From a virus: DNA of 64,000 nucleotides. The notes beneath the pieces are model-generated. The model made no database searches, was not told the DNA's origin, and was given only the letters and a program-made list of their open reading frames with translations. Both the position numbers and the translations under genes were made by a program. The stretch is from positions 32,001 through 96,000 of the IMG/VR virus record IMGVR_UViG_3300033146_004399. One strand, given 5' to 3'. Positions 13,401 through 60,188 of the stretch are shown here, piece by piece (position 1 is the first letter of the stretch; each line of letters begins with the position of its first letter).

Positions 13401-15157
13401 CCAATTTCCATTTCAAACGTTGTTTGGTTCATAACAGGGTAAGCTTCAATACCAACTATTATCGGAGTTGGTATAAATTTAGGTTCTGTTATACCAAACA
13501 TATATAACTCTTCTTCAGCTTTTTTCAACTTCTTTTCCATAATGTCAATAGCCATACCAGTAGCATTTACTGCTGTTTTAGAACCTTCATTGGGATCTAC
13601 AATAGATCTAATCCACATAAATCTATGACCATATAAAGTTAAAGGATTATCTATTGTACCAAATATAGAAGTACTATCTATTGCAGCTCCTAAAGCAGTT
13701 ACTGTCGTAAGAGCCCCTAAAAGGTAAGCTTTTATACTAATTAATTCTTGATCCACAATATTACGCGCTGAAGCATTGGTAAGAGAAGAACCATTTTTAT
13801 GCACATCAATAAAATCAAGTGATTGTTGTATTCTATCTTTTATCGTTGTTAATGTATTTATCCATCCATTTTGTAAATTCCATGAAAAACCTATATTACT
13901 ATTTACATCATCTGGATCATAATTTGGGTCTATGCCTGGTATAATCATATAATTAACAAAATATGTAAAATTAGTTATTTTAGTATAATCAATATAAGTT
14001 ATTATATCATTTATTTTAGAAATAATAGCTAACGCAGCTGAATCATATGATGAAGTCCAATAATCTTGAGATGGAGTATAACCTGGTGGATATGAGTATT
14101 GTGTCCCATTAACATCCCAAGTTCCATTACCAAACACCGTTTCTCCATCAACGTCATGAGTTAAAAACCCTTCAGTGCGGGGGGTATTAATAGCATTTGG
14201 AAGATTAATAATTCCAGGAGAATCATTAATCTCTAACAAACTAGTAGCATCAGTACTAACAATATTATTAATAAGAATATTATTTGTTTTATCGGTACCA
14301 CTACCAAAAAAAGAAAATGTTCTTGTTGGCTCAGTATAAGTATAAGGCGCGACGTCTCTATGCCTTATACCTAAAAGAGTATTATTAGTATAATAAGTAT
14401 ATGGAACTGGAGAAGAACCATAAGATACCGATTTTATATGAGGGCCAACAGGACTCTCTGTACCTATAACTGCAAGAAGATCATCAATTTTACCAAGAAG
14501 AGACTGTGACCTTTCATCTGGAGGATATATCCAAATTAAACTTCCAGGCGTAGGGCCTGGAGGATCATACCAAATTTGATATTTATCTCTGTTAATAGTA
14601 AATGAAGTACTATAATTTGGTTTGCCTAATTGTGAAGCTAATGTTGTCCACCCTTTAGTCATAGGTACATCAAATTCACCTTTTCTTCCTCGGCTTAATA
14701 CGTTATTTAATTTTATTTTCGTAGTTGTGTTACTGGTATTTGCAATTTCTGATTCTAATGTCTTCCAGCCGATATAAAAACCTGATTTATATCCTTGACC
14801 ATCTGTAAGATTATTAGCAGCTGCCCGTAAACCAGATCTTTCTGTCGAATTATGAGAAGTAAACGAAGTATTATTACCACCTTCTTTAATTATATTATTT
14901 CTTACTGTACCCCGAAGTTTATATATTATTTCGTAATAACATCGTATTAAGCCTTCAACGCCCATACTTGTCCATGTAATATTTTCATTTCTTGAATAAC
15001 CAAATAAAAGACCTAAATTAAATAAATCTTCATCAGCCATAGAATCAATTGGGGGAGCAACAGAACCATCTCTTGCCATCAATACATTTAATTTAGCCAT
15101 AAGAGCATCAGAACGTTTTTGTTTCAGTTCAAATTTTCTTTCATTTATTGTTGGCAT
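10499..15157 (-). CDS. Large virion structural protein (1552 aa); FN3-like segment, four Trp-rich repeats, C-terminal region paralogous to 41743 ORF
   Basis: Long ORF with SD GAGGTG; W-x-x-PV..DLP..GD.R.V...YRW repeats; GSNLMVFVDG module. Confidence 0.75.
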   Translation of the reverse strand: MPTINERKFELKQKRSDALMAKLNVLMARDGSVAPPIDSMADEDLFNLGLLFGYSRNENITWTSMGVEGLIRCYYEIIYKLRGTVRNNIIKEGGNNTSFTSHNSTERSGLRAAANNLTDGQGYKSGFYIGWKTLESEIANTSNTTTKIKLNNVLSRGRKGEFDVPMTKGWTTLASQLGKPNYSTSFTINRDKYQIWYDPPGPTPGSLIWIYPPDERSQSLLGKIDDLLAVIGTESPVGPHIKSVSYGSSPVPYTYYTNNTLLGIRHRDVAPYTYTEPTRTFSFFGSGTDKTNNILINNIVSTDATSLLEINDSPGIINLPNAINTPRTEGFLTHDVDGETVFGNGTWDVNGTQYSYPPGYTPSQDYWTSSYDSAALAIISKINDIITYIDYTKITNFTYFVNYMIIPGIDPNYDPDDVNSNIGFSWNLQNGWINTLTTIKDRIQQSLDFIDVHKNGSSLTNASARNIVDQELISIKAYLLGALTTVTALGAAIDSTSIFGTIDNPLTLYGHRFMWIRSIVDPNEGSKTAVNATGMAIDIMEKKLKKAEEELYMFGITEPKFIPTPIIVGIEAYPVMNQTTFEMEIGGWLVAWGGQTHCNGYDVWKSDDYDPETKQGTWNKLEVSNTNYTMTDIDANTGKVLTYIIDGDVDPIPNDVDPATITHPYYKVKAYDVNAGSGDYDRSDTMSEECEPQNPAAFPFGGDSTAQHSGPRGTAQKAVTTTPTGPSIPPNTLAWVTTFKGGESLDFERRLFESEAPFDSTGSNLMVFVDGEFKNQGLTEDEGDYELLDIYKIRFNLNIAIDSEVNLVVFLRSFAKSGDYGTVSVYGDLPFPPDVENGDIYFVEEPSPGAYYQWVDPPGEWRLVGDPNGSSIWRDPVNSFTQLPTSLNVDGDIRMVLDSSTLYRWVSAQEEWVKISGSTGGSWLPPVDTSDDLLEIESNTLSNGTVVFIISEESFYRWSSTQNEWIRVTSASSSSYLRDLVNNVTDLPMSNNGEGDLRLVLNENKLYRWFAWDREWKPIIADVDLIHEELRDEDWEIVDDHDARYYPKSELDEYHGTMEERLNLLESLKPKDAQPLSGNFAITGTKIYSGYLSEGRSILRYNTLAAGDYFNKIIKDTSFILSNNDVTQFKDADKGILYCYINGEQVDEFNLAEWFNEDERINGQTYPRQFGLNNIIEILSVGPYNQYPIYQRADFQLNIKSRLLLQGENNIKLVHEIGNSAGDINSTEDFTVFWDEFDGYMGFKEIYIDEMELNSNKYLSGVRYYSMGDKLRFRFKVENLFNNTFVKDEQIFLNLDEFGITPFYINYEDINILGVPVTRIGEDIYYMNTLELELSGVYSSQPNLKLEAKNPFGVQQHSKTNTQILINTVDVKSTPLTEQFVDEYYRLLHGDYNSITAYTGQWNSEQQLTPDDLQVFGGRLIYPNQNFTNYFPSQTVNYENCSGPKYYYRVFHHANPHSNGKLIIQNFYNADSNIKAEIKLPGLTGWLDLATLYNEADFTGANGDGCLIHNKGESYEWTSGIFNTANSSYLIILKITLFADTNYIEGIRMEDW

Positions 15158-16229
15158 TTAACACCTCTAATATATTTTCTATATTATATTTTTCATTAAA
15201 GTATAATATATTCACTTGTTTTTTTATTTCTTTCATTTTCCACTTAAACTTATCATCCCAATAATAATTTGAATGAGGCTCTAAATACAAATCATAATCA
15301 AGCAAATAAAAGTCTGGGGCATAAAGTCCATCTAATTTATTTTCTTTTTTATATTTTATAAATTTTAAACCATTATGAGCAATAAAATTTATATTATTAT
15401 TTACAAGAAATTTTGCAACTTTTAGTTCGAACTTACCTTGTACTTTTTGACCATTTATATTAAACCATGCACATTTATTGTTTGAATTATTCTCTCTTGC
15501 AGTTTTCATCATTTTTATCTTAAATTCATATAACTGAGCCGGTCTCTTAACACCATATTTATTCATAAAATAAGATGTCATCCTGTCTTGCATGCCTTCA
15601 ATCTTTGAAGGGTGAGTAACACCATAATTATTATATAATGTTTGTTTACATTTCTCTTTTACGTCTTTATTCTGTAATGAACATTTAGTACCATACTTGT
15701 CTAAATTGGTATTTTGTGCTTTTAATATATTATTATATTTTTTATTTCCGTATTTTTTTAATTTAGTTTCTTCAGATTTATTTATTATAATTTTATTACC
15801 TAAACTACAAATATTACCGTATCTTTTTAAATTAGTTTTTTGTGCTTTTTTGAGTAATTTATTCGATTGTCCACTATATTCAACACCATATCGTTTTAAC
15901 ATTGTTTTAGTACGTTTCTCTGTATTAAAAGCTAATTTACCGTTATTATTTAATCTTTGAGTATTTTGAGCTTTTCTAGATATATCTTTATTCATCATAC
16001 AATTTTTAACTCCATAATTTAACATGTGCACATATTCAGTTTGATGTTTTTGACATAAACATTTCTCATGTTCTTTATAAAATTTTTTAAAACGCTTGAT
16101 GGCTTTAGATACTTTTATCCCGCATTCTTCACATATAATATCTAAACGGTCATAATTATTAAGTTTTTTACCATTTACATATATACAATTCTGCTTCAGT
16201 TCAAATTTTCTTTTATCTATTGTAGGCAT
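15141..16229 (-). mobile_element. Homing-endonuclease-like gene (KYG repeats + PD-(D/E)XK domain) fused to a copy of the downstream gene's first 13 codons
   Basis: QGKFELKVA...YAPDFYLLDYDLYLEPH nuclease motif; starts MPTIDKRKFELKQ versus MPTINERKFELKQ of 15157 gene. Confidence 0.8.
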
Positions 16230-16283
16230 TTATATTTTCCTAAATATTTTATATGATTTTATCTTTACCAAACAAGATAAATT

Positions 16284-16367
16284 TATAGTGAATTGTAAAA
16301 GATTAAATATATAGTGAATTGTAAAAGATTAAATATATAGTGAATTGTAAAAGATTAAATATATAGT
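16284..16367 (+). repeat. Three perfect 26-bp tandem repeats plus a partial copy in a divergent intergenic region
   Basis: TATAGTGAATTGTAAAAGATTAAATA at 16284, 16310, 16336, then TATAGT. Confidence 0.95.
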
Positions 16368-16385
16368 AAATGATTAGGAGTTAAA

Positions 16386-18127: not shown

Positions 18128-19231
18128 TTATCCATTTAATAGTTCCTTAATTTTTTCTATATTATATTCTTCATCAAAGTAAAATATCTTTACTTGTTTC
18201 TCTATTTCCTGCATCTTCCACTCAAATTTATCATCCCACCAATATTTAGCATGTGGTTCTAAATATAAATCGTATTCTGGTAAATAAAAATCTGGGTGAT
18301 AATAATGTTTATTACCATCTTCTGCATAATATTTTATACTTTTTAATCCTTTATGCGCTATAAATTTAATTCCATTTTTTAATAAATAATTTGCCACTTT
18401 TAATTCAAACATACCTTGGAGCTTATGGTCTTCAATTAAATACCACTTGCATCTACCACCTTTCCCCCACGAATTATTTTTGTTTTTAGTTTTGCGGATT
18501 TTTTGTTTTATTTCTTCAATTTGTGTACAACTTTTTGCACCATATTTTTTTAACATTGTTGCCTGCGATTTCAACATCATATCAGCTACAACTTTTGGGT
18601 CTTTCATTCTATGTTCATAGCCATATTTCTCAAGATTAGTTTTCTTTATTCTCTCTTTTATTTCTTCAGATTGAAAACCATTTTTAACACCATATTTTTT
18701 AATCATACCTTCTTCTAATAAATCTCTTCTCTTTAATATTTCATTTACACCGTATTTCTTTAATACGGTAGCTGTTTGCTTTTCTTTTAATTCTTTATTT
18801 TGTGTCGCGTACTTTACACCATATCGTTTTATCATAGTATTTTCTTGTTTCATTTTAACATCTTTAATTTGTAAAGCATGTTCAACACCATATCGTTTTA
18901 ACATGGTATTTTTGCCCTTATTTTTTACATCTTCAATTTGCATAGGATTAGAGACACCATACTTTTCCATATTGGTATGTTTCTGCTGACAAGCTTTACA
19001 ATATTGTTTCACATTAAGGAAATTTTTATTATAATCAAAATAAGACTTAAATTTTTTTTTACATTCATCACAAATGTATATTACTTTATCTCTTTGAGTA
19101 AGATTAATTTTATTATTTATAAGGAGTGTTTTTACTTTCTCTTTTCGATGGTAAGGTAAAAAATCTACAATATTTATAGATTTAATATCTACTATTTCTT
19201 TAGTTTTATACAATTTAATTTGTTTTATCAT
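18128..19231 (-). mobile_element. Homing-endonuclease-like gene (KYG repeats + PD-(D/E)XK), leaderless start
   Basis: QGMFELKVA...YHPDFYLPEYDLYLEPH; paralog of 15141 and 20214; AAGATAA-N4-ATG with no SD. Confidence 0.8.
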
Positions 19232-19260
19232 ATAGTTATCTTATAAAATAGTGTCAAGCT

Positions 19261-20235
19261 TTAGATCACAATTCCTAAACTTTTAACAATTCCATCCGTT
19301 ATAGATTCCATTTTAGCTGCAGCAGGAGGTGGCAATGTAGGCATTTGTGCTCTAACACATTCTAACATTCCACCTATAGCTAGACCTATAGGGAGGATCA
19401 TTGGACATGTAATCCATTTCCCTAACATTTGTCTTACTTTATCTGTTATACAATTACCTTTAGGGAGTACAGGGAGAGTTGGTAAAGATGGAGGATCTGG
19501 AAGATCAGGATAGTATGGTACAGGAACTTCAAAATCATCTGCATAATCTTCCAAGAATTCCCAATCTTTTTTTAATTGAATAAGAGTTAAAGGGGTTATT
19601 CTTTTGACAGCTCGTTCCATTTCCCACACTTCCAACTTTTTATTCATAATTTCTATAGTTATAAGGAGAATGGCAACAAGCCATTCATCAAGAGAAGTTA
19701 TCATATCTTGCCATGTTTGTGACATCTCTTCGTTACCTTCCTCTTCTGCAGCTTTAGCTTTTTCTGAGTATTTAAATACTGTATCTTTATATTTAGCTAA
19801 TTCTGCAGCTTGATAAACCTTTAATTCATCCATCTCAATATATATTTCTGGTATTCTTTCTTCATATTCTTTGAGTTGAATTTTCATTTTATCTTGAGCT
19901 TCTTTTTCGTCTATGTAGAGTTTTTTTAATGCAGCAGCCCTTTGCGTTTTTGCTTTTCTCAATTGTTTAGCATACATTTCAACCATTTTCTGAATAATTT
20001 TAGCAATTAATTCAAAAAAGAAATTTATTAAATACTCTAACAATTGTAAGATAAAAGATATTGCAGCACCGAAAGGGATTGCTGGTATTGCTATAATACC
20101 CATAGGTATAAGCCCCATAGAATCCATTATAACTTCAGATATAGTTTTAATACCTGCAACAAGGATTGGAGGAGCTGCTGCTGTAAAATCTAAGCCTAAT
20201 TTAATCGCTTCGCCTATGCTGGGTAGAACCGGGAT
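19261..20235 (-). CDS. Coiled-coil, Pro-rich probable structural protein; start proposed at ATC 20235 rather than ATG 20127
   Basis: Frame open 36 codons upstream of 20127; SD GGAGGT 6 nt before ATC CCG GTT; ATG 20127 lacks an SD. Confidence 0.65.
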   Translation of the reverse strand: MPVLPSIGEAIKLGLDFTAAAPPILVAGIKTISEVIMDSMGLIPMGIIAIPAIPFGAAISFILQLLEYLINFFFELIAKIIQKMVEMYAKQLRKAKTQRAAALKKLYIDEKEAQDKMKIQLKEYEERIPEIYIEMDELKVYQAAELAKYKDTVFKYSEKAKAAEEEGNEEMSQTWQDMITSLDEWLVAILLITIEIMNKKLEVWEMERAVKRITPLTLIQLKKDWEFLEDYADDFEVPVPYYPDLPDPPSLPTLPVLPKGNCITDKVRQMLGKWITCPMILPIGLAIGGMLECVRAQMPTLPPPAAAKMESITDGIVKSLGIVI

Positions 20236-21392
20236 AGTAGTACCTCCTCTATATTATATTTTTCATTAAAGTATAATATTTTCACTTGTTTTTTTACCTC
20301 TTTCATTTTCCACTTAAACTTATCATCCCACCAATACTTAGCATGTGGTTCTAAATATAAATTATATTCAGGTAAATAAAAATCTGGATAATAATTACTT
20401 TCTACATTATCTTCATTTAAATATTTAATTGATGCTATATTATCATGTGTAATAAATTTAATTTTATTTTCTACCAACCAGTTAGCTACTTCTAATTCAA
20501 AAGTACCTTGTATTTGTTGCCCCTCTATTTTAAACCATTTACAGGAATTTTTAACAGAAGTACCATAACGTTTTAACATTGTTTCTTTTGATTTATCAAG
20601 CCGGGCAATTGAAGTAACGCCATGATTTTTAATAAATGTTTCTTGCCTCCGCTTAACTATATCAGGATGTTTAGAGGGGTTATCAACTCCCCAATTATTT
20701 AACATAGTTTGTTTCATTTTGTCTTTTACCTCTTTCAGTTGTGTAGTGCTTTCAACACCATATTTATTTAAGTTGTTTTCTTTTATTTTATTTTGTATTT
20801 CTTTTGATTGTGACGGGTTTTCTACACCCCAATTATTTAACATAGTTTGCTTTATTTTATTTTGTATTTTTTCCGATTGAAAAGGATTTTTCACTCCGTA
20901 TTTTTTAAGATTAGTTTTCTCCATTTTTTCTATATTATGGTATCCTTCATTACCATATCTCTCTAATTTAGTTTGTTTAATTTTAACTTTGACAAAATCT
21001 AATGTATTTACATTATTTGTTCCATACTTCTTGTTTATAAGATTGTTATGTTCTTTAGTCCCATAACCATAAGCCACTTTTGAGCCATATCGTTCTATAC
21101 ATGTTTGTTCTGTTTTGTCTCTTACTATTTTTGATTGTGTTGGCCATTCAGTACCATACTTATTTAGATTCGCTTCTTTTCTATGACATTTGGTACATAG
21201 AATTTTATCATTCCAGTATCTTGGTCTTCGTTTGAATACAGCCTTTTCTTCTTTACCACATTCATCACACTCAATAACAATATAATCAATAGCATTTATT
21301 TTTTTATTATTTACATGAATGTTTTTATCATCTATAACTATATTGCCTTTTACTGTCTCGTTTGTTTTTCTATCTATAAAATATTTTATCAT
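20214..21392 (-). mobile_element. Homing-endonuclease-like gene (KYG/NWG repeats + PD-(D/E)XK)
   Basis: QGTFELEVA...YYPDFYLPEYNLYLEPH; 3' 83 nt nearly identical to 15141 gene. Confidence 0.8.
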
Positions 21393-21544
21393 TACATTCT
21401 CCTATAGTAGGTATTACAGGATTATCTTAGTAAAAAATAATAAAAAGTGGTATTTTCCAAAGCATATCTTGTTATGAAATGACAGATGATAAAAAAGCTA
21501 AAAAATGCTTACAGACTCCATACTGAAAGTTTTATATTTTTTGA

Positions 21545-21733
21545 ATGGTAACCACTACAACACTCTATGAACAAGCAGACCCGCAGCATATCCCAAAAAA
21601 AGATGATTATGTGGTTATTGATGGGGAAGAATATATAGTACGTTATAATATATTTGAACCTACAAGAGAACAAATTACTATCAGCTTAATGTCTTTAGCT
21701 GAATACAATAAATACCAAAGAAGAAAAAACTAA
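21545..21733 (+). CDS. Small hypothetical protein (possibly 3' part of a frameshifted gene starting at 21486)
   Basis: ORF track; upstream frame MIKKLKNAYRLHTESFIFFEW* overlaps its start. Confidence 0.5.
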   Translation: MVTTTTLYEQADPQHIPKKDDYVVIDGEEYIVRYNIFEPTREQITISLMSLAEYNKYQRRKN

Positions 21734-21793
21734 CCTCCTTTTAATCATTTTATTCCTTTCACGTAAAGATAATTTTATAGGAAGGGGGATAAT

Positions 21794-22180
21794 ATGAATG
21801 ATCAAACAGGTATGCTCACACCGCAACAATACCAAGATCAAGTGGCAGCACGGAATGGGCTTAACCAGAGATTAGGTTCAAGTAGTATGCATTATGAGAT
21901 GGGCACAGAAAATCTTAACGTAAATAAAAAAAGTAAATCAACATCTAAATTATTAATAAATATAGCTTTTATGGCGATACTCACTGCTGGGATAGGGGGC
22001 TCATTTGTATCATTTTTTGATATGGATAAATTTGTTTCTTTCCTTGAAGTGTTTGGATATATATGGGCTCCTTTAATCATAGCAGTAGGTGGAGGCAGAG
22101 CTCTAAAGGGCTATACTGAAAAAAAGTATTTAGCTAATAAAAATCAACAACAAATGGACATGACACAACCACCAGTATAA
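21794..22180 (+). CDS. Two-TM membrane protein (holin-like topology, unproven)
   Basis: Two hydrophobic helices; SD AAGGGGG; AAGATAA motif at 21766. Confidence 0.6.
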   Translation: MNDQTGMLTPQQYQDQVAARNGLNQRLGSSSMHYEMGTENLNVNKKSKSTSKLLINIAFMAILTAGIGGSFVSFFDMDKFVSFLEVFGYIWAPLIIAVGGGRALKGYTEKKYLANKNQQQMDMTQPPV

Positions 22181-26976: not shown

Positions 26977-27321
26977 ATGGAAATGTTTAATAAAGATGGT
27001 GATCCAACTAAAGAATTTTTTGTATTTTTAAAATATAATACTATACCTTCAACTGAAGTTAAATTATTAGAATCAGACATAATGCTATATAATGATTTTT
27101 CTAGTAAAATGAGATTATTAACAAAATATGTTAATAATGATGATGATAGAATGAAAGTTATCTCGTCCTCATTGTTTTCTATGTTTGGTTATAGTAGACA
27201 CTATTGCAGTATGACTGGTTCACCTATAATCGGGAAGTATTTCAAAATTAATGGTAAAGTTGTAAGTCGTGAAGCCTATGAGTCATATAAAATAATTCAA
27301 GAAATTGAGGATAAATATTAA
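26977..27321 (+). CDS. Hypothetical protein
   Basis: SD AAGGGGT. Confidence 0.7.
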   Translation: MEMFNKDGDPTKEFFVFLKYNTIPSTEVKLLESDIMLYNDFSSKMRLLTKYVNNDDDRMKVISSSLFSMFGYSRHYCSMTGSPIIGKYFKINGKVVSREAYESYKIIQEIEDKY

Positions 27322-27322
27322 A

Positions 27323-29041
27323 ATGACTATTGAAATTGATAATAAATTTGTAGAATACAATCATGATTTATTATTAGAAGATAAAAATAAAAAACGAAAT
27401 AAATTTACATATGATAACAAATCAATTTCAGTAACAAATAGAATGCAATTTTATTGTTCTAAGTGTGGCAAAACCGTAAATACTATATTTAGATACTATA
27501 ATGATTCTTTTGTAACTTTATGCAAAAATTGTAAAAAAGAATCAACTATGATAAAAAATTATGGTGTAAAATCTAATTTTTCTCGTGAAAAAGTTTTAAA
27601 CAAAATAAAACAAACTAATTTAAAACGATATGGTGTTGAAAATCCTTTTCAGTCTGAAGAAATAAAAGAGAAGATAAAGCAAACTAATTTAAAAAAATAC
27701 GGACATGTTCATGCGATGAACAATGATAATATAAAAAATAAATGTAAAGCAACTCAATTTAAAAATAATAATGGGAAATTTGCTTTTAACAGTAAAAAAC
27801 AAGAATTGACTATGATTAAAAAATATGATGTCAAACATGCTTTACAGAACAAAGAAGTTTGCCAGAAACAAAAAGAAATAATGATTAGCAAATATGGCAA
27901 CAAAAATAATTTTAATAAAATTAAAAAAACAAATTTAAAACGATATGGTGTTGAAAATCAATTTAATAGAAATTCTATAAAACAACGAATAGCAAAACAA
28001 AAAAAAATAAATTTTTTTAAATATTTAAAAAAACGAAATGAAAATATAGTTCCATTGTTTAATATTGAAGAATATACTAATGTTAGTTTAAGCTATAAAT
28101 GGCAATGTAACAAATGTAATACTAAATTTAAAGACAATATAGATGACGGTCATATACCTAGATGTCCTACTTGTTTTCCTAAATACAAATCTAAACCTGA
28201 AAAAGAAATTACTGAGTGGATTAAATCTTTAAACATTTCTAACATCATTGAAAATGACAGATCTATTTTAAGCGGTAAAGAGTTAGACATTTATTTACCT
28301 GATTATAATCTAGCTATTGAATTTAATGGACTTTACTGGCATTCAGAATTAAATGGTAAAGACAGAAATTATCATTTTAATAAAACTATTGAATGTGAGA
28401 AACAAGGTATACAATTGCTTCATATATTTGAAGATGAATGGATCGATAAACAGAATATTATAAAGAATATAATTAAAGTTAAATTAGGTTTAATAGATAA
28501 AAAAATATCTGCTAACGAGTGCACAATAAAAGAAATAGATAATCAAGAAGACTTTTTAAATGTAAACCACGTACAAGGATATATACCTGCTGAAATAAAT
28601 ATAGGTTTATATCATGAAGAAGAATTGGTTGGTCTTCTTACGTTTAGTAAATTTAGATATAATGAAGATTATGACTGGGAAATACTTAGATGTGTTGATA
28701 GATTAGATACACATGTGGTCGGTGGGTTTGCTAAAATATTGAAATATTTTACAAATAAATACAAAGGTAGTATAATAGCATACTCAGACAGAAGATTATG
28801 CAGTGTGAATATATATGAAAATAATGGATTTATGAAATTAAAATTTACCAGGCCAAGGTGTTATTATTTAAATAATAATAATTATTTTATACGCTACAAC
28901 AGACAACAATTTCAAAAACATAAACTAGATACTTTTGATCCTTCGTTAACAGAATGGCAAAATATGCAGTTAAATGGTTGGGATAGAATATGGGATGTTG
29001 GCAACAATATATTTATATATAAAGGAGAACTATATGTCTAA
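27323..29041 (+). mobile_element. Homing-endonuclease-like gene (KYG repeats + Vsr/Hef-like), paralog of 8468 ORF; start at second ATG
   Basis: KELDIYLPDYNLAIEFNGLYWHSE...HIFEDEW; LTEWQNMQLNGWDRIWDVGN almost identical to 8468 C-terminus; SD GAGGA before 27323. Confidence 0.8.
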
Positions 29042-31872: not shown

Positions 31873-32126
31873 TGTTCTATCCTGTATATGAAAATGACAA
31901 TAAATTAATTGTTGCTATATTTGAATTTACTGAAGATGATATAAATTATGAACCTGCACCGGCAAGTGGTTCCGATTATGATGAATATGTTTATTCAGAT
32001 GATATCAATGCAATAAATTATGTTGGTAATTTTAATGAATGGGGAGATTATTATTTAGAAGATAACGTTAAATGTAATACTTTTTATGATGCTCAAATTA
32101 TGTTAATACAATGGGTTATTAAGTGA
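31872..32126 (+). CDS. Acidic hypothetical protein
   Basis: TAATG coupling. Confidence 0.65.
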   Translation: MFYPVYENDNKLIVAIFEFTEDDINYEPAPASGSDYDEYVYSDDINAINYVGNFNEWGDYYLEDNVKCNTFYDAQIMLIQWVIK

Positions 32127-32824: not shown

Positions 32825-33931
32825 ATGATTAAAGCAATTAAGCTTTATAATTTAAACAAATCAATAATTGTTAATGACATTAAAATAATTGAAACAGAAT
32901 ACAGATTAAAAAAATTTAAAACGTTATTAATCAATAAAGAATATAAACTAATACAAAGAGATAAAATAACATTTATATGTGACGAGTGTAAAAGAGAATT
33001 TGAAGAAAAATTTGCTTTTAATAAAAAGTTTTTTGGATTAAAACAAAATTGTAGGACTTGCGATATATCAAAAACAAAGTTGATAAAATATGGTTCTAAA
33101 AATGGTTTTTCTCAAATAGAAAAAAGTGTTATGAATAAATATGGGGTTAAGAGTGTTTTTCAGTTAGATTTTGTTAAAAAGAAAATTGAAAAAACATTTA
33201 TAAAAAGATATAACGCTAAGAATAATTTTGGACGGTTTGAAGTTAGAAAAAAATTATATAATAAAGATGGCAGTTATAAAAATAATAGAAATAGAGCTAA
33301 AATGACTAATATTAAAAAATATGGCGTCGAAAATGTATCCCAGCTTAAAGAAATAAAAGAAAAAAAGAAAAAAACATGTTTAAAAAATTATGGAGTCGAG
33401 AATATATTTCAAGATAGAATTTTAATGGAAAAACTAATGTTTGCTAAATATGGCGTAAAACACCCGCTTGAATCAAAAATGATAAAAAACAAAATGAAAC
33501 AAAATTTTTTAAAACATTGGGGTGTGGAATATCCTGGTCAACATCCAGAAATTCACAAAAAGCAAATGCATTCTTTTAAAAATAAAACATCTGTTAAAAT
33601 TATAAATAATAATTTATATTACCAAACTAAGCCTGAATTAGAATACATTGTATATTGTCAAAATAATAACATTGATATATATAATGGGCCTTCTGTACCA
33701 TATATGTTTGAAGGTAAAAAACATATTTATCATATAGATTTTGAAACTGATAAATATGTAGTGGAAATTAAAGCATCTCATATATGGTATAAACAAAATC
33801 TAGTTTCGGGTAAGATAGAGGCTAAAAATAAAGCAGCTAAAAAATATGCAACATCTATAAATAAAGAATTTCTCTTTTTATTAGATGTTAAAGATTATAA
33901 AAAATATATGGAGAATTATAATGTCAGATAA
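32825..33931 (+). mobile_element. Homing-endonuclease-like gene (KYG repeats + TnsA-like PD-(D/E)XK)
   Basis: CDEC/CRTC motifs, KYG repeats, HIYHIDFETDKYVVEIK. Confidence 0.75.
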
Positions 33932-43673: not shown

Positions 43674-44783
43674 TTATATTATAAGCTCCTTTTTTAATAC
43701 GTCTTTAATATTTTCATTATATTTTATTCTAATTAATTTTATATTATTATCTAAACAATATTGATTTTTAATTTTATCATTTTGTTGTATATATTTAAAA
43801 CCTTCTTCTCCGCCAAAAAAATCTATAGGTTCATAATGTTGTTTTCCATCGTATTCTATTAAAAGCTTATCATGTATATAAAAATCAAATGGAAGAGGAA
43901 GAATATTTTTACAGTCATTAAATCTTTTTTGTCTTATATATTGTATATTTTTATTATCTAAATAATGAGCTATTGCTTTTTCACCTTTTGATTCATTGCA
44001 TACCGGGCAACCTGTGTCACCATAAATATGATTTCTTGCTATTTGTTCAAATACTCCATGAATAGGACATATTATTTTAATTTTTTCTCTACCTATTGTA
44101 TATTTAGAAAGAGAGTAGTTATATTTATTACTATGTATTAATTTTGCTTTTTTTATAAATTTTTTTGTATCAATTCTGCTTTTCAATCTATAACATTTAT
44201 CACAACCTGCTCCATTTAAATGCGCAGGCGGGATTTGTTCAAATATTCCATGTTCTGGACATATTATTTTAACCTTGGTATTTGCATTAATATAACTAAC
44301 TAAAGAATAGTTATATTTACTACCATGTATTTGTTTAGCTGTAGTAATAAATTTTTCTTTAGTAAATGATTTTATACTTTTTATATAATTATGTTGACAT
44401 TTAATGCATCCTTTGCCACTTAAATGCGCATCTGGTCTTTGCTCAAATGTTCCGTGGATAGGACATATTATTTTAATTTTAGTTTTATTGTTTATATATT
44501 CAACCAAAGAATAATCATATTTATTGTCATGTTTTTTAGAAGCTTGTTTTATAAAAGTTTCAAGTGTTTTAGTTTTAAATTCTGTTCGTTTTCTTATACC
44601 ACATTTTTTACATCCTCTATTGTGTAAATGATTTTTGGGTGTTTGTGCAAATATACCGTGTTCAGGACATATTATTTTAACTTTAGTTTTATTATTTATA
44701 TATTCTACTAAAGAATAATCATATTTATTATTATGCACAATATTAGCTTCTTCTATAAATTCATTTAGCGACTTTCTCCCCAT
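43674..44783 (-). mobile_element. Homing-endonuclease-like gene (four DUF723-like repeats + Vsr/DUF559-like nuclease)
   Basis: KYDYSLVEYINNKTKVKIICPEHG repeats; LPFDFY..LIEYDGKQH; start MGRKS at 44783. Confidence 0.8.
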
Positions 44784-44878
44784 ACATTTAATTATGCTTT
44801 TATACAATAAAAGCAAGACTATTGGTAATAAATAACTTAAGATAATTAAATATAACGAAATATAAGGAGAAATTAATT

Positions 44879-46571: not shown

Positions 46572-46678
46572 CACTTCCTTGTTTTTAAAATATTTAAAAT
46601 TCTTTTTAAATAATACCATACTATCTCCGTCTTAATGTATAAGATAATATAAGAAATTAAAATGACAGGAGGCACAAA

Positions 46679-57330: not shown

Positions 57331-58227
57331 ATGGGAAAAAAACTAACAACGCAAGAATTTATAGAAAAAGTTAAAGCTATTCATGGTAATAGATATGATT
57401 ATTCTTTAGTTAATTATAGAGGTGCACATAAGAAAATAAATATAATATGTCTAAAGCATGGAGTATTTGTACAAACCGCAAATAATCATTACCGCGGAAA
57501 TAATTGTCCTAAATGTTATGCAGATATATTAAAAAATTCACGTAAAGACGACTATAATAGTTTTATATCAAAAGTTAAAAAGCTTAATAATAAATATGAT
57601 TATTCTTTGGTAGAATATGTAGATAGTCAAACTAAAGTTAAAATAATATGCTCTGAACATGGTGTGTTTGAACAAACACCAAATAACCATATAACTAAAA
57701 AACAAGGTTGCCCTATATGCGGTGGAAGTAAAAAGCTAACTACTGATATTTTTATTCAGAGAGCAAAAAAAATACACAATAATAAATATGATTATTCTAA
57801 ATCTTTATATATGGGTATGGAGGTAAAAATTGATATAATATGTTCAAAACATGGAATATTTAAACAAGTTCCAAAACATCATTTAAATAATCATGGGTGC
57901 CCGATATGCAATGAATCTAAAGGCGAAAAAGCTGTGGCAAAATATCTAGATGATAATAATATTAAATATATAAGACAAAAAAGATTTAATGATTGTAGGA
58001 ATAAACACCCGCTATCTTTTGATTTTTATGTTCCAAAAAATAATATTTTAATAGAATATGACGGAATACAACATTTTGAAATAAATGAACATTTTGGCGG
58101 TAAGAAAGGTCTAGAACATATACAAAAAAATGATGGAATAAAAAATAAATATTGCAAAAATAATAATATAAAACTTATCAGAATAAAATATAATGAAAAT
58201 ATCAAAAATAAATTGGAGCTGATATAA
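57331..58227 (+). mobile_element. Homing-endonuclease-like gene (three DUF723-like repeats + Vsr/DUF559-like nuclease), leaderless, coupled to terminase
   Basis: Same repeats; LSFDFYVPKNNILIEYDGIQH; AAGATAA-N5-ATG; TAATG overlap with terminase. Confidence 0.8.
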
Positions 58228-60188
58228 TGGCGCAGTCGGCAATAACTCGAAAACAATATGTACAAAATCTTGTAAAAGAAAAGTATGAGCAGTACGCTTT
58301 AAAAATACCATATAATAAATTAAGATGGTCTGATGATTACATTGATGTTACCTTAAATGATGGTACTGTCGAAGTAGTTGATCGCCTTGTTGAGTTCACG
58401 TTATGCAAGACATCATCGTACTATTTCATTGATAGATATTGTTTTACTAATCATCCTAAACTGGGATTCGTTCCATTTAAATTGCACGACTTTCAAAAGC
58501 AAGCTTTAAAAGACTTCCAGGAACATAATAAAGTTATTTTCAGAAAATCTAGGCAAATTGGTATAAGTGTAATATCTGGTGCTTACGCCCTTTGGCGGGG
58601 CAATTTCTATAAAAATCAAATGATTAAAGTAATCTCCCTCACCAAGGCAGACGCCATAGAATTTAAAGATAAAACTATCGATCTCAACTATGAGAAAATG
58701 CCTGGTTTTCTTAAAACAGCTGCTAAAGCTGGAAGGCTTGGTAGAACTAAATTTGAATTAATAAATGGTTCTCAAATACAGGTACTTCCAAAAAGTAAAA
58801 ATGCTGGTCGTGGTTCTACACCATCACTGGTAATAATCGATGAAGCAGCTTTTAATGAGTGGATGGATGATATATGGAAAGCAATCGAACCGGCATTAGA
58901 TAAAGGTGGAGATATAATTGTAATTTCAACGACAAATGGTGTTGGTAATTGGTATCACTTAACATATACAAGGGCTGAAGAAGAATTGAATGAATTCTAT
59001 CCCATTTTTATCCCTTGGTGGAGATATCCAGACCGTTCTAATCCTTGGCTTCCTATGGTTATGGAAAAAATTAAGAATAAAGAATGGGATGATAATAAAG
59101 TACAAGAATATGTTAAAAAAATGGAAACTGAACAACTATCATACAAGGGTAGTCCTAAAACTGCTCCTTGGTTATGGATAAGAAGAGCTAACGCAAAGTC
59201 AGAGCAAGAATTTAACCAAGAAATCATGGCTCAATTTTTAGGTTCTGGTTCTACCGTTATACCTTACAGAGAAATTGAAAGAATTGATGAGGAATGGGTT
59301 TGTGAACCTAAGTGGAAGGATGTTCTTCCACAAGACGAAAATAATGAAATTATAAAAGGTTTGTGGATTTGGAAGGATAGAAATATAAATTCTATGTATA
59401 TGTTAACATCAGATACTGCGACAGGTCACGGAAAAGATTATTCAACTATGCATGTTATAGATGTCTATCAAAGGGAACAAGTTGCTGAATATAAATGGCA
59501 AGTACCAACAGATGAGATGGGCAGACTAATAAAAAAAGTTGCTACATATTATAATGGTGCGTATGTTCTTATAGAATGTAATCATCCAGGACCTGCAACA
59601 TTTAATGAAGTTTATAAGCATAAAACTGATCCTTATTACAATTGTTACGTTAAAATGAAAAGTGGTAACCCATGGGGTTGGGATACAACTGCCAAAAGTC
59701 GCGTTCTTCTAGTTGAGGACTTTTACAAAGATATTCTTAATCAAACAACAAAAATATATTCATCACGTCTTTCTAACGAAATTAAAACTTTTATCTGGAC
59801 TGAAGGTGGTAAGCCGGAAGCAGCCCGTGGTAATAACGACGACCTTCTTATAGCTTATACATTTTATACTCATTTAGTTGATAATGTTTTTTCAGCTCAA
59901 CCAGCTGCAATACACAGTAGTAAAAAAATTGTAGATTATAATAACATGAACAAATTTGAAGAAGATTGGGAAGAGAGAGAAGACATGTTTATTAACTCCC
60001 ATGGTATGAGTATGAAAGACTGGTATTGGATACAAGGTAAACCTTTACCGAAAGAATATGTTGAATGGAAAAGAGCAGAAGAGGCTGAAGATGGTATTGT
60101 AGATAGAGAAAGTGATATTTCACTTTTAGAAGATATAAATAACAGAAAAAATTTAGGCTTAACTCCGCCACCTTCTTGGATTAAATAA
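58227..60188 (+). CDS. terL: Terminase large subunit (T4 gp17-like)
   Basis: LHDFQK Q-motif, KSRQIGIS Walker A, VIIDEAAF Walker B, ISTTNG coupling motif, RNase H acidic residues SDTATG..DYS and NDDL. Confidence 0.92.
   Translation: MAQSAITRKQYVQNLVKEKYEQYALKIPYNKLRWSDDYIDVTLNDGTVEVVDRLVEFTLCKTSSYYFIDRYCFTNHPKLGFVPFKLHDFQKQALKDFQEHNKVIFRKSRQIGISVISGAYALWRGNFYKNQMIKVISLTKADAIEFKDKTIDLNYEKMPGFLKTAAKAGRLGRTKFELINGSQIQVLPKSKNAGRGSTPSLVIIDEAAFNEWMDDIWKAIEPALDKGGDIIVISTTNGVGNWYHLTYTRAEEELNEFYPIFIPWWRYPDRSNPWLPMVMEKIKNKEWDDNKVQEYVKKMETEQLSYKGSPKTAPWLWIRRANAKSEQEFNQEIMAQFLGSGSTVIPYREIERIDEEWVCEPKWKDVLPQDENNEIIKGLWIWKDRNINSMYMLTSDTATGHGKDYSTMHVIDVYQREQVAEYKWQVPTDEMGRLIKKVATYYNGAYVLIECNHPGPATFNEVYKHKTDPYYNCYVKMKSGNPWGWDTTAKSRVLLVEDFYKDILNQTTKIYSSRLSNEIKTFIWTEGGKPEAARGNNDDLLIAYTFYTHLVDNVFSAQPAAIHSSKKIVDYNNMNKFEEDWEEREDMFINSHGMSMKDWYWIQGKPLPKEYVEWKRAEEAEDGIVDRESDISLLEDINNRKNLGLTPPPSWIK

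Follow-up and report, generated by a model that had tools for sequence, protein, structure and literature searches.

A conserved phage gene with a probable ATC start behind a free-standing homing-endonuclease-like gene that duplicates its first codons

In a 64 kb stretch of viral DNA (64,000 nucleotides, hereafter the window; positions 32,001 to 96,000 of the IMG/VR record IMGVR_UViG_3300033146_004399), a free-standing gene resembling those of homing endonucleases lies at the 5' edge of a conserved gene, referred to here as the target gene, whose first codons occur twice: once upstream of the endonuclease gene, as a short relic without a start codon, and once downstream of it, in a complete copy that begins within the 3' end of the endonuclease gene and in which the position of the start codon is occupied by ATC. 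The explanation which we consider likely is that the endonuclease gene forms a cassette which replaces the 5' end of the gene that it invades and supplies it with a substitute AUC start. What appears to be new is the non-canonical ATC start in an endonuclease 5'-end cassette, conserved across two phage species; a literature search found no paper on phage 5'-end replacement cassettes.

All features of the locus lie on the minus strand. The promoter-like motif AAGATAA (21422-21428), which in endonuclease-free relatives adjoins the target ATG, is separated by a single base from the relic (21420-21397), which reads CCT GTA ATA CCT ACT ATA GGA GAA, encodes PVIPTIGE and corresponds to target codons 2-9. 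The relic is preceded two codons upstream by an in-frame TAA and now forms the 5' leader of the endonuclease gene, with AGGAGA (21398-21403, within the relic codons I-G-E and 5 nt upstream of the endonuclease ATG) as its probable Shine-Dalgarno sequence (SD). After the four bases TGTA the endonuclease open reading frame (ORF) starts at 21392 and runs for 392 aa to a TAG at 20216-20214 (20214-21392). Embedded in its codons E-E-V is GGAGGT (20242-20247), the putative SD of the rebuilt target start, followed after a 6-nt spacer by ATC (20233-20235), the proposed AUC initiation codon, at the position where homologues have ATG, TTG or GTG, and then by CCG GTT CTA CCC AGC ATA GGC GAA (PVLPSIGE). From this ATC the target gene (19261-20235) comprises 324 codons and a stop, being open to the TAA at 19263-19261. 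Its frame is -1 relative to that of the endonuclease, and the two genes overlap by 22 nt (20214-20235), the endonuclease 3' end (…L S R F Y P A stop) coinciding with target codons 1-7 and the endonuclease stop beginning 19 nt after the first base of ATC. On its 5' side the target frame is closed by a TAA at 20256-20254; the ORF listing shows no ATG, GTG or TTG between this TAA and the ATG at 20127, which is the first canonical start in frame and lies exactly 36 codons after the ATC.

Between the relic and the rebuilt copy, 6/8 amino acids and 17/24 nucleotides are identical, five of the seven differences falling at third positions. The two identities, the coordinates of the relic and its lack of a start codon are all as given in a preceding sequence-only reading of this DNA (hereafter the original prediction), which had also allowed that the 8-codon match could be coincidental. 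The six-frame translation of the window contains no other 8-mer at least 6/8 identical to PVLPSIGE (0.07 expected per shuffled window), nor does its DNA contain another 24-mer with at least 17/24 nt identical, and the relic stands exactly between the promoter-like motif and the endonuclease start. The match exceeds chance.

Homologues place the start of the target gene at the ATC. A search of 5.8 billion proteins returned 12 target clusters, most of them exactly 324 aa long, and a profile search of 1.84 billion representatives returned at least 29 clusters, nearly all of 320-325 aa and matching from profile position 1. Their N-termini are nearly all MPV(I/L)P, in agreement with the MPV(I/L)P(T/S)IGE that had been expected of endonuclease-free homologues, and they can be aligned without gaps to the window frame with their M opposite the I encoded by ATC. 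Because this gapless alignment begins at the ATC position, the possibility that homologues start only at MDSMG does not hold. Across the family the first 36 residues are as conserved as the remainder of the protein, and the dN of the window N-terminus against loci L001 and L003 (0.17-0.23) is no higher than that of the rest of the gene.

Public gene calls for several homologues are nevertheless short, at 288, 308, 281, 307 and 317 aa (P0003, P0011, P0012, P0017 and P0032) and 300 aa (L016:3523-4425). The true start of the short-called homologues is either non-canonical or lies directly behind the promoter motif without an SD, and in ATC-start genomes the callers drop 23-42 codons of the target gene. 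P0017 and P0032 were considered as further non-canonical starts and rejected, as their ATG directly follows AAGATAA and the calls are merely misplaced. In a distant member of the family, P0026 (L012:51-110 and L013), AGGAGG-N8-ATT CCA GTA stands at the family start position and the first canonical start comes 14 codons past the ATT, which may be a candidate for a second non-canonical start; both P0026 contigs stop 64 nt upstream, as if the assembly had broken in a repeat.

The original prediction had read the relic as the stranded 5' end of the target gene, and comparison with relatives bears this out. In L003, with no endonuclease upstream, the sequence is uninterrupted (AAGATAA-taat-ATG CCA GTA ATT CCA ACA CTA AAC GAA), and relative to it the window relic lacks the ATG and the 3 nt before it. 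The endonuclease is likewise absent from the site in L007, L008, L010, L011, L014 and L018, where the target starts with ATG or GTG. The promoter-like motif stands directly before the target ATG in L003, L007, L008 and L010, and it also precedes the target gene in L011, L014 and L018. By this comparison the upstream stretch of the window is identifiable as the stranded original 5' end of the target gene.

The succession of relic, endonuclease and rebuilt start is repeated in two further lineages, giving three independent endonuclease-linked lineages. In the first (L005, L006, L016 and L017) the relic reads GGAG-N6-TTG CCT GTA ATA CCA ACT ATA AA. (L005:2865-2891) and is followed by a 324-aa DUF7487 gene beginning MIKYFIDRKTN, as in the window, the 3' end of which carries GGAGGT-N6-ATC CCG GTT CTG CCA ACT ATA AAT. 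In the second (L004) the relic reads AAGATAA-ata-ATT CCA GTT CTT CCT ACA TTA AGT GA. (L004:5673-5700), and past it only the last 89 endonuclease codons are left, followed by GGGGGT-N6-TTG CCT GTT TTA. The relic runs to codon 8-9 in each of the three lineages, which places the insertion site, and presumably the cleavage site, at this point. With the endonuclease intact in the window and in L005, L006, L016 and L017, decayed in L004 and absent from seven loci, the site shows the stages that a homing endonuclease gene classically passes through. At codons 7-8 the residues are specific to the lineage and the same in relic and rebuilt copy (IG for the window, IN for L005, LS for L004), which fits repeated homing within each phage population; rebuilt codons 1-4 are instead specific to the cassette.

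The ATC is found in more than one phage. The identical junction GGAGGT-N6-ATC CCG GTT CT occurs in four fetched loci of a second species, from four different samples. The endonuclease cluster of this species, P0042, comprises 10 protein variants on 65 contigs, the longest of 499 kb, and all 10 variants end in ...EEVVLSRFCQL; as the Ser codon TCC of the invariant LSRF tail shares its TC with the ATC in the fetched loci, an equal ATC junction is implied for all of them. Because the identical junction is present in a second phage species, the ATC can be taken to be no assembly error. Between the window and L005 the target proteins are 64% identical and synonymous sites are saturated; at the junction the SD is identical at 6/6 positions and ATC CCG GTT CT at 11/11, and the spacer at 2/6. 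Both ATC alleles keep an intact frame of 323-324 codons, and for codons 2-36 the comparison of the two gives a dN/dS of 0.30 (dS 1.1).

Translation signals point to the same codon. The 18 nt that precede ATC are predicted to pair with the anti-SD at -13.3 kcal/mol, a value matched by none of the 38 window ORFs with a length of 150 aa or more (best -10.9, median -6.3), and the region before ATG 20127 reaches -0.5 kcal/mol and has no SD. By the same measure the AGGAGA of the relic, at -7.3 kcal/mol, is close to the window median, and with its 5-nt spacing it is plausible as the SD of the endonuclease gene. No RNA structure beyond that of shuffled sequences was predicted at the ATC start (z 0.13), and neither a coding-strand terminator nor a sigma-70-type promoter above chance was found between the endonuclease and the target gene. 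In Escherichia coli reporters AUC initiates at 1-2% of the level of AUG, with Met at the N-terminus (10.1101/063800), and the natural ATC start of Deinococcus dnaA has been shown by N-terminal proteomics (PMC2830850). As the target family tolerates weak starts elsewhere (TTG in L001 and L004, GTG in L014), we infer that ATC is a working start codon, compensated by the strong SD; the expected N-terminus would then be (M)PVLPSIGEAIK in the window protein and (M)PVLPTINEALLLG in the L005-type phage. The placement of the rebuilt start at this ATC, 36 codons upstream of ATG 20127, is thus upheld by the alignment of homologues, by the strongest SD of the window and by the ATC shared with a second species.

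Codon usage sets the beginning of the rebuilt gene apart. Its codons 1-14 (20194-20235) form a recoded tract with rare or G/C-ending codons (CCG, CTA, CCC, AGC, GGC, GCG and GGC), CCG accounting in this genome for 8.7% of Pro codons, CTA for 7% of Leu, CCC for 6% of Pro and GGC for 11% of Gly; the relics use common codons. Over codons 2-14, G/C-ending codons make up 17/39 in the three endonuclease-linked alleles versus 12/102 in eight endonuclease-free ones (Fisher p 1e-4, a value that overstates the support, the linked alleles not being independent), and in the window allele alone 6/13, compared with 14% over its remaining codons (p 0.007). All three linked alleles have GCG as codon 10 and GGC as codon 14, neither of which occurs at these places in any free allele. 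The tract, of about 42 bp, straddles the relic boundary at codon 9, as expected of a homing site made resistant in the invaded allele, which suggests that the recoding of codons 1-14 confers immunity to self-cleavage; the change from ATG to ATC lies inside the tract.

The favoured explanation, a 5'-end endonuclease cassette with a substitute AUC start, would run as follows. A free-standing homing endonuclease of the DUF7487 family, PD-(D/E)xK-like, would have inserted at about codon 9 of a conserved late gene of a large uncultured phage, bringing at its 3' end the new start of that host gene: GGAGGT, a 6-nt spacer, ATC and recoded codons (CCG GTT CTN ...). The resident motif and codons 2-9 would have been left upstream with loss of the ATG, to serve as the leader of the endonuclease gene and probably as the source of its SD. 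Both genes would be co-transcribed from the host gene's own promoter, and the full-length host protein would be made by AUC initiation with initiator tRNA, its N-terminus still being Met-Pro-Val. Initiation at AUC would be aided by the strong SD and perhaps also by ribosomes that finish translating the endonuclease 19 nt further downstream. With rare codons replacing the usual ones over codons 1-14, the invaded allele would most likely be endonuclease-resistant, and the G-to-C change of the start codon may belong to the same recoding.

A stronger version, which we put forward only tentatively, is that the endonuclease imposes the non-canonical start. The start-codon G and the silent positions of codons 2-14 would in this case fall within a homing site of about 40 bp, so that only an allele recoded as far as the start codon could persist beside the endonuclease, the lost initiation would be offset by the strong SD in the last codons of the endonuclease and possibly by termination-reinitiation, and the stranded half-site could act as an operator limiting the late expression of the endonuclease, much as I-TevI in T4 limits its own late expression. 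The identity of the window relic and the L005 relic at 17/18 nt was considered as evidence for such an operator and dropped; with identical amino acids and two favoured codons for each, this identity is unremarkable (estimated chance about 1 in 10).

Several observations weigh against the favoured explanation. AUC is a poor initiator in the systems in which it has been measured (E. coli; initiation in the host of this phage may be more or less stringent). The conservation of codons 5-36 may partly reflect recent invasion in each lineage and not selection under ATC, and in L005 codons 5-8 of the rebuilt copy depart from the relic at just 1/12 nt. The window's own ATC comes from a single assembly, and the non-independence of the linked alleles, noted above, belongs here as well.

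Among the alternatives, we regard as unlikely the proposal that AUC is used essentially only by ribosomes leaving the endonuclease gene, which would stop at TAG 20216-20214, move back 19 nt and restart, initiation by free 30S subunits being negligible and the yield of host protein depending on translation of the endonuclease. Restarting ribosomes may discriminate less at near-cognate codons, and the overlap geometry is kept in L005, where the TAA begins 19 nt after the first ATC base. An overlap of 22 nt, with the start within seven codons of the stop, is in the range discussed for T4 overlaps (PMC2988022). However, the unusually strong SD suggests direct recruitment, and in L004, where the endonuclease has decayed to 89 aa, the gene is kept with an SD-like GGGGGT and TTG, so coupling is not required in that lineage.

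It is distinctly unlikely that the ATC allele is a damaged start from which only the truncated protein beginning at ATG 20127 (288 aa), or none, is produced, the observed conservation being a trace of recent invasion. Gene callers did choose internal ATGs (288, 281 and 300 aa), AUC is weak in E. coli, and the L005-type population is nearly clonal with its relic almost equal to rebuilt codons 5-8, which may indicate recent invasion. Against damage, MPV(I/L)P and the first 36 residues are conserved family-wide, it is the ATC and not ATG 20127 that has an SD, and SD and ATC have been kept across two species whose endonucleases are 45% diverged and whose spacers have diverged too. In addition, the ATC allele is fixed in an abundant phage (65 contigs), neither lineage shows stops or frameshifts, and the 4/15 nt by which relic and rebuilt copy differ over codons 5-9 of the window allele indicate long residence.

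Synthesis of the N-terminus as an endonuclease fusion, by programmed -1 frameshifting in the overlap, is hardly credible: the target frame does lie at -1 to that of the endonuclease, and L005 has conserved the overlap sequence of the window, but the overlap, with CTA TCC CGG TTC as its zero-frame codons, offers no slippery heptamer of the X XXY YYZ type and folds into no predicted stimulatory structure (z 0.13), nothing like a 716-aa fusion of nuclease and structural protein is found among homologues, and L004 keeps the gene without an intact endonuclease. Equally far-fetched is an artefact (a coincidental 8-codon match, an assembly error at ATC or a self-splicing intron), for although the window's genome is represented by one assembly and the match is short, the relic is the sole match in the window, the anatomy recurs in two further lineages, the ATC junction is identical in four loci from four samples, and splicing would restore nothing, the relic being without a start codon and the downstream copy being complete. 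An Rfam scan of 19000-21800 with E up to 1 found no intron or other RNA family. The endonuclease is not in an intron or intein: it has its own ORF, start and stop, with a complete host gene downstream, and both a group I intron and an intein were rejected for the lack of an Rfam match, the endonuclease being out of frame with the target and having its own stop.

The 392-aa endonuclease ORF matches Pfam PF24308 (DUF7487, E 2e-36), with DUF7487 repeats and Zn-finger-like CxxC pairs, as well as PHROG 3339 and 12131, both annotated 'homing endonuclease', names that stand at the level of annotation. Its C-terminal PDF...LEPH region is PD-(D/E)xK-like, with weaker matches to endonuclease and resolvase PHROGs. 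The positional orthologue in the second species (L005:2922-3896, P0042) has 55.5% amino acid identity to it, and the family as a whole has hundreds of members in metagenomes; a literature search found no paper mentioning DUF7487 and no characterised family member. The genome has seven paralogs of the endonuclease, and at least six DUF7487 genes are located in the window, which also holds an HNH endonuclease gene (43674-44816, minus strand; PHROG 559, E 6e-97); by these counts the genome is unusually rich in homing-type nucleases. At two other DUF7487 genes (27305-29041 and 32825-33931) the 5' end of the downstream gene is not duplicated.

The IMG/VR record is 179,366 bp long and judged 63% complete, with the large terminase at 58227-60188 of the window. 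No close relatives were found among sequenced phage isolates, tblastn of the target against phage isolates gave no match, a related-locus search on viral and metagenome contigs returned nothing, and a scan of metagenome and viral contig collections for the junction pattern gave one unrelated GC-rich chance match only (L015). The motif (T/A)AAGATAA(T) is found 0-41 nt upstream of about 20 ORF starts in the window, on both strands, e.g., at 46641(+), 8430(-), 62180(-), 55971(-), 19242(-) and 16265(-), and several genes begin only 4-5 nt past AAGATAA, without an SD; it is probably a late-promoter element of this phage group.

The only DNA matches are to Lak-type megaphages, which prompted a test for an alternative code with TAG=Q; this was rejected at the locus, the long ORFs being intact under table 11 and TAG ending 19/178 ORFs. 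The sole tRNA in the 179-kb record (G000:C1:113615-113688, about 17.6 kb past the window end) has the anticodon CUA, which reads UAG, and is labelled tRNA-Pyl by ARAGORN. Reading TAG as sense merged no large ORFs and gave no sign of wholesale recoding in the available part of the genome. With TAG suppressed, the endonuclease frame would pass three TAGs to a TAA at 20131-20129 that overlaps ATG 20127 as TAATG, a classic coupling arrangement with internal Met37. Since the L005 endonuclease ends in TAA, this arrangement is probably a coincidence.

For the target protein itself, no Pfam or PHROG match was obtained, protein-atlas leads were all below 0.8, and Foldseek against PDB and BFVD gave only generic coiled-coil matches (E > 0.01). 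Its AlphaFold model (pLDDT 83.5) has a pair of short helices at the N-terminus and a small hairpin, then a long helical hairpin formed by a helix of about 110 residues that folds back on itself, and a conserved, Pro-rich segment, PYYPDLP. In most loci the gene lies upstream of a gene for a 1250-1550-aa protein, in L007 upstream of an SLT lytic transglycosylase gene, and in L018 it comes after a Phage_base_V baseplate gene; on the strength of these neighbours it is probably a virion tail or baseplate-associated protein. In L001 an unrelated 175-aa gene (L001:5463-5990) separates AAGATAA from the target gene, whose start in this locus is a TTG preceded by GGAG; with this insertion the 5' edge of the target gene would be a hot spot for more than one kind of element.

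A comparable event is found in the same window at 16229-15141 (minus strand). The endonuclease gene there starts ATG CCT ACA ATA GAT AAA AGA AAA TTT GAA CTG AAA CA, which duplicates codons 1-13 of an overlapping gene for a 1552-aa protein and gives the endonuclease the N-terminus MPTIDKRKFELKQ; this 1552-aa gene has its new start, an ordinary ATG preceded by GAGGTG, within the 3' end of the endonuclease gene. The chimera is conserved, since orthologues from other assemblies (P0054 and P0073, one of them on a 480-kb contig) carry the captured N-terminus as well. The original prediction had proposed the same mechanism for both sites, with the event described here being the older. The principle is indeed shared: the endonucleases belong to one family, insertion was in the first codons of a virion gene (codon 13 at the neighbouring site), and the 3' end of the endonuclease gene holds the SD of a duplicate start obtained by the downstream gene. 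The outcome differs, in that the relic at 15141 keeps its ATG and is fused in frame and translated as the endonuclease N-terminus, whereas here the start is lost and the relic has become an untranslated leader, and in that the rebuilt start there is a normal ATG, and here ATC. The relative age cannot be read from identity, because rebuilt codons 1-4 came already diverged with the cassette and because the relic at 15141 is kept by selection as the endonuclease N-terminus. The two endonuclease genes, whose proteins are about 41% identical overall, share an 83-nt stretch with 3 mismatches (20248-20330 versus 15178-15260, minus strand) that ends ...ATAGA immediately before each target-specific SD and suggests recent gene conversion or a modular right end. 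About three tandem copies of a unit of roughly 31 nt (cactatatatttaatcttttacaatt...) occupy 16283-16377 (minus strand), in the divergent intergenic region just upstream of the AAGATAA of the 16229 endonuclease.

The closest described design is that of the mobile endonuclease ORFs (mORFs) of fungal mitochondria, which lie at gene 3' ends, as in atp6 of Allomyces macrogynus and in atp6, atp9, cox2 and nad3 of Glomus (PMC3630166, and Paquin et al. 1994 as cited there). In both systems a free-standing endonuclease lies inside a coding sequence and carries a diverged, largely synonymous replacement end, the native end being left as a relic beyond the endonuclease and the differences being mostly silent. 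The phage case is the mirror image and does not concern an organelle: it is the 5' end that is replaced, so that SD and start codon, too, have to come with the cassette, the relic has only 8 codons, the substitute start is a non-canonical ATC, and the nuclease is DUF7487/PD-(D/E)xK-like where those of fungi are LAGLIDADG or GIY-YIG. By this analogy the phage cassette would work like the fungal mORFs without being homologous to them.

Among phages, the seg and mob endonucleases of T4-like phages (PMC2988022) are similar in being free-standing, present or absent among relatives and represented by several paralogs per genome, and they also adjoin or overlap conserved genes, being expressed from neighbouring late promoters with overlaps that suggest coupling. 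Intronless homing in T4 is accompanied by co-conversion of flanking markers (PMC2988022). Elements of this kind are, however, usually intergenic there, and mobA (gene 60/39) and mobE (Aeh1 nrdA) split a gene into two expressed polypeptides (PMC2988022); here, in contrast, the gene is restored in one piece, a 24-nt relic that is not translated is all that is left over, and the nuclease family is a different one.

As regards the start codon, the locus has features in common with natural AUN starts: a near-cognate AUC at the ATG position of orthologues, a conserved N-terminus upstream of the first canonical start, and a well-spaced SD. E. coli infC and pcnB use AUU starts. Unlike these and Deinococcus dnaA, the proposed ATC start described here came with a selfish element, and stays linked to it, instead of being an ancient regulatory feature, and orthologues without the element use ATG, TTG or GTG.

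Homing endonucleases are usually assumed to depend on an intron, an intein or a place between genes if the host gene is to be spared. This locus and its neighbour at 15141 point to another phage solution, in which an element inserted in the first codons of a gene brings along a ribosome-binding site, a start codon and a recoded N-terminus. For the uncharacterised DUF7487 nuclease family, a homing site can be predicted from the relic boundary, and annotation and pangenome pipelines applied to endonuclease-rich jumbo phages will mis-call starts of this kind. In at least two phage species, of which one is widespread, a conserved structural gene apparently relies on an AUC start; if this is true, it would be a rare natural test of how far a strong SD or coupling can offset a near-cognate start, and if the start is moreover imposed by the endonuclease, expression of the host gene would depend on the 3' end of a selfish element.

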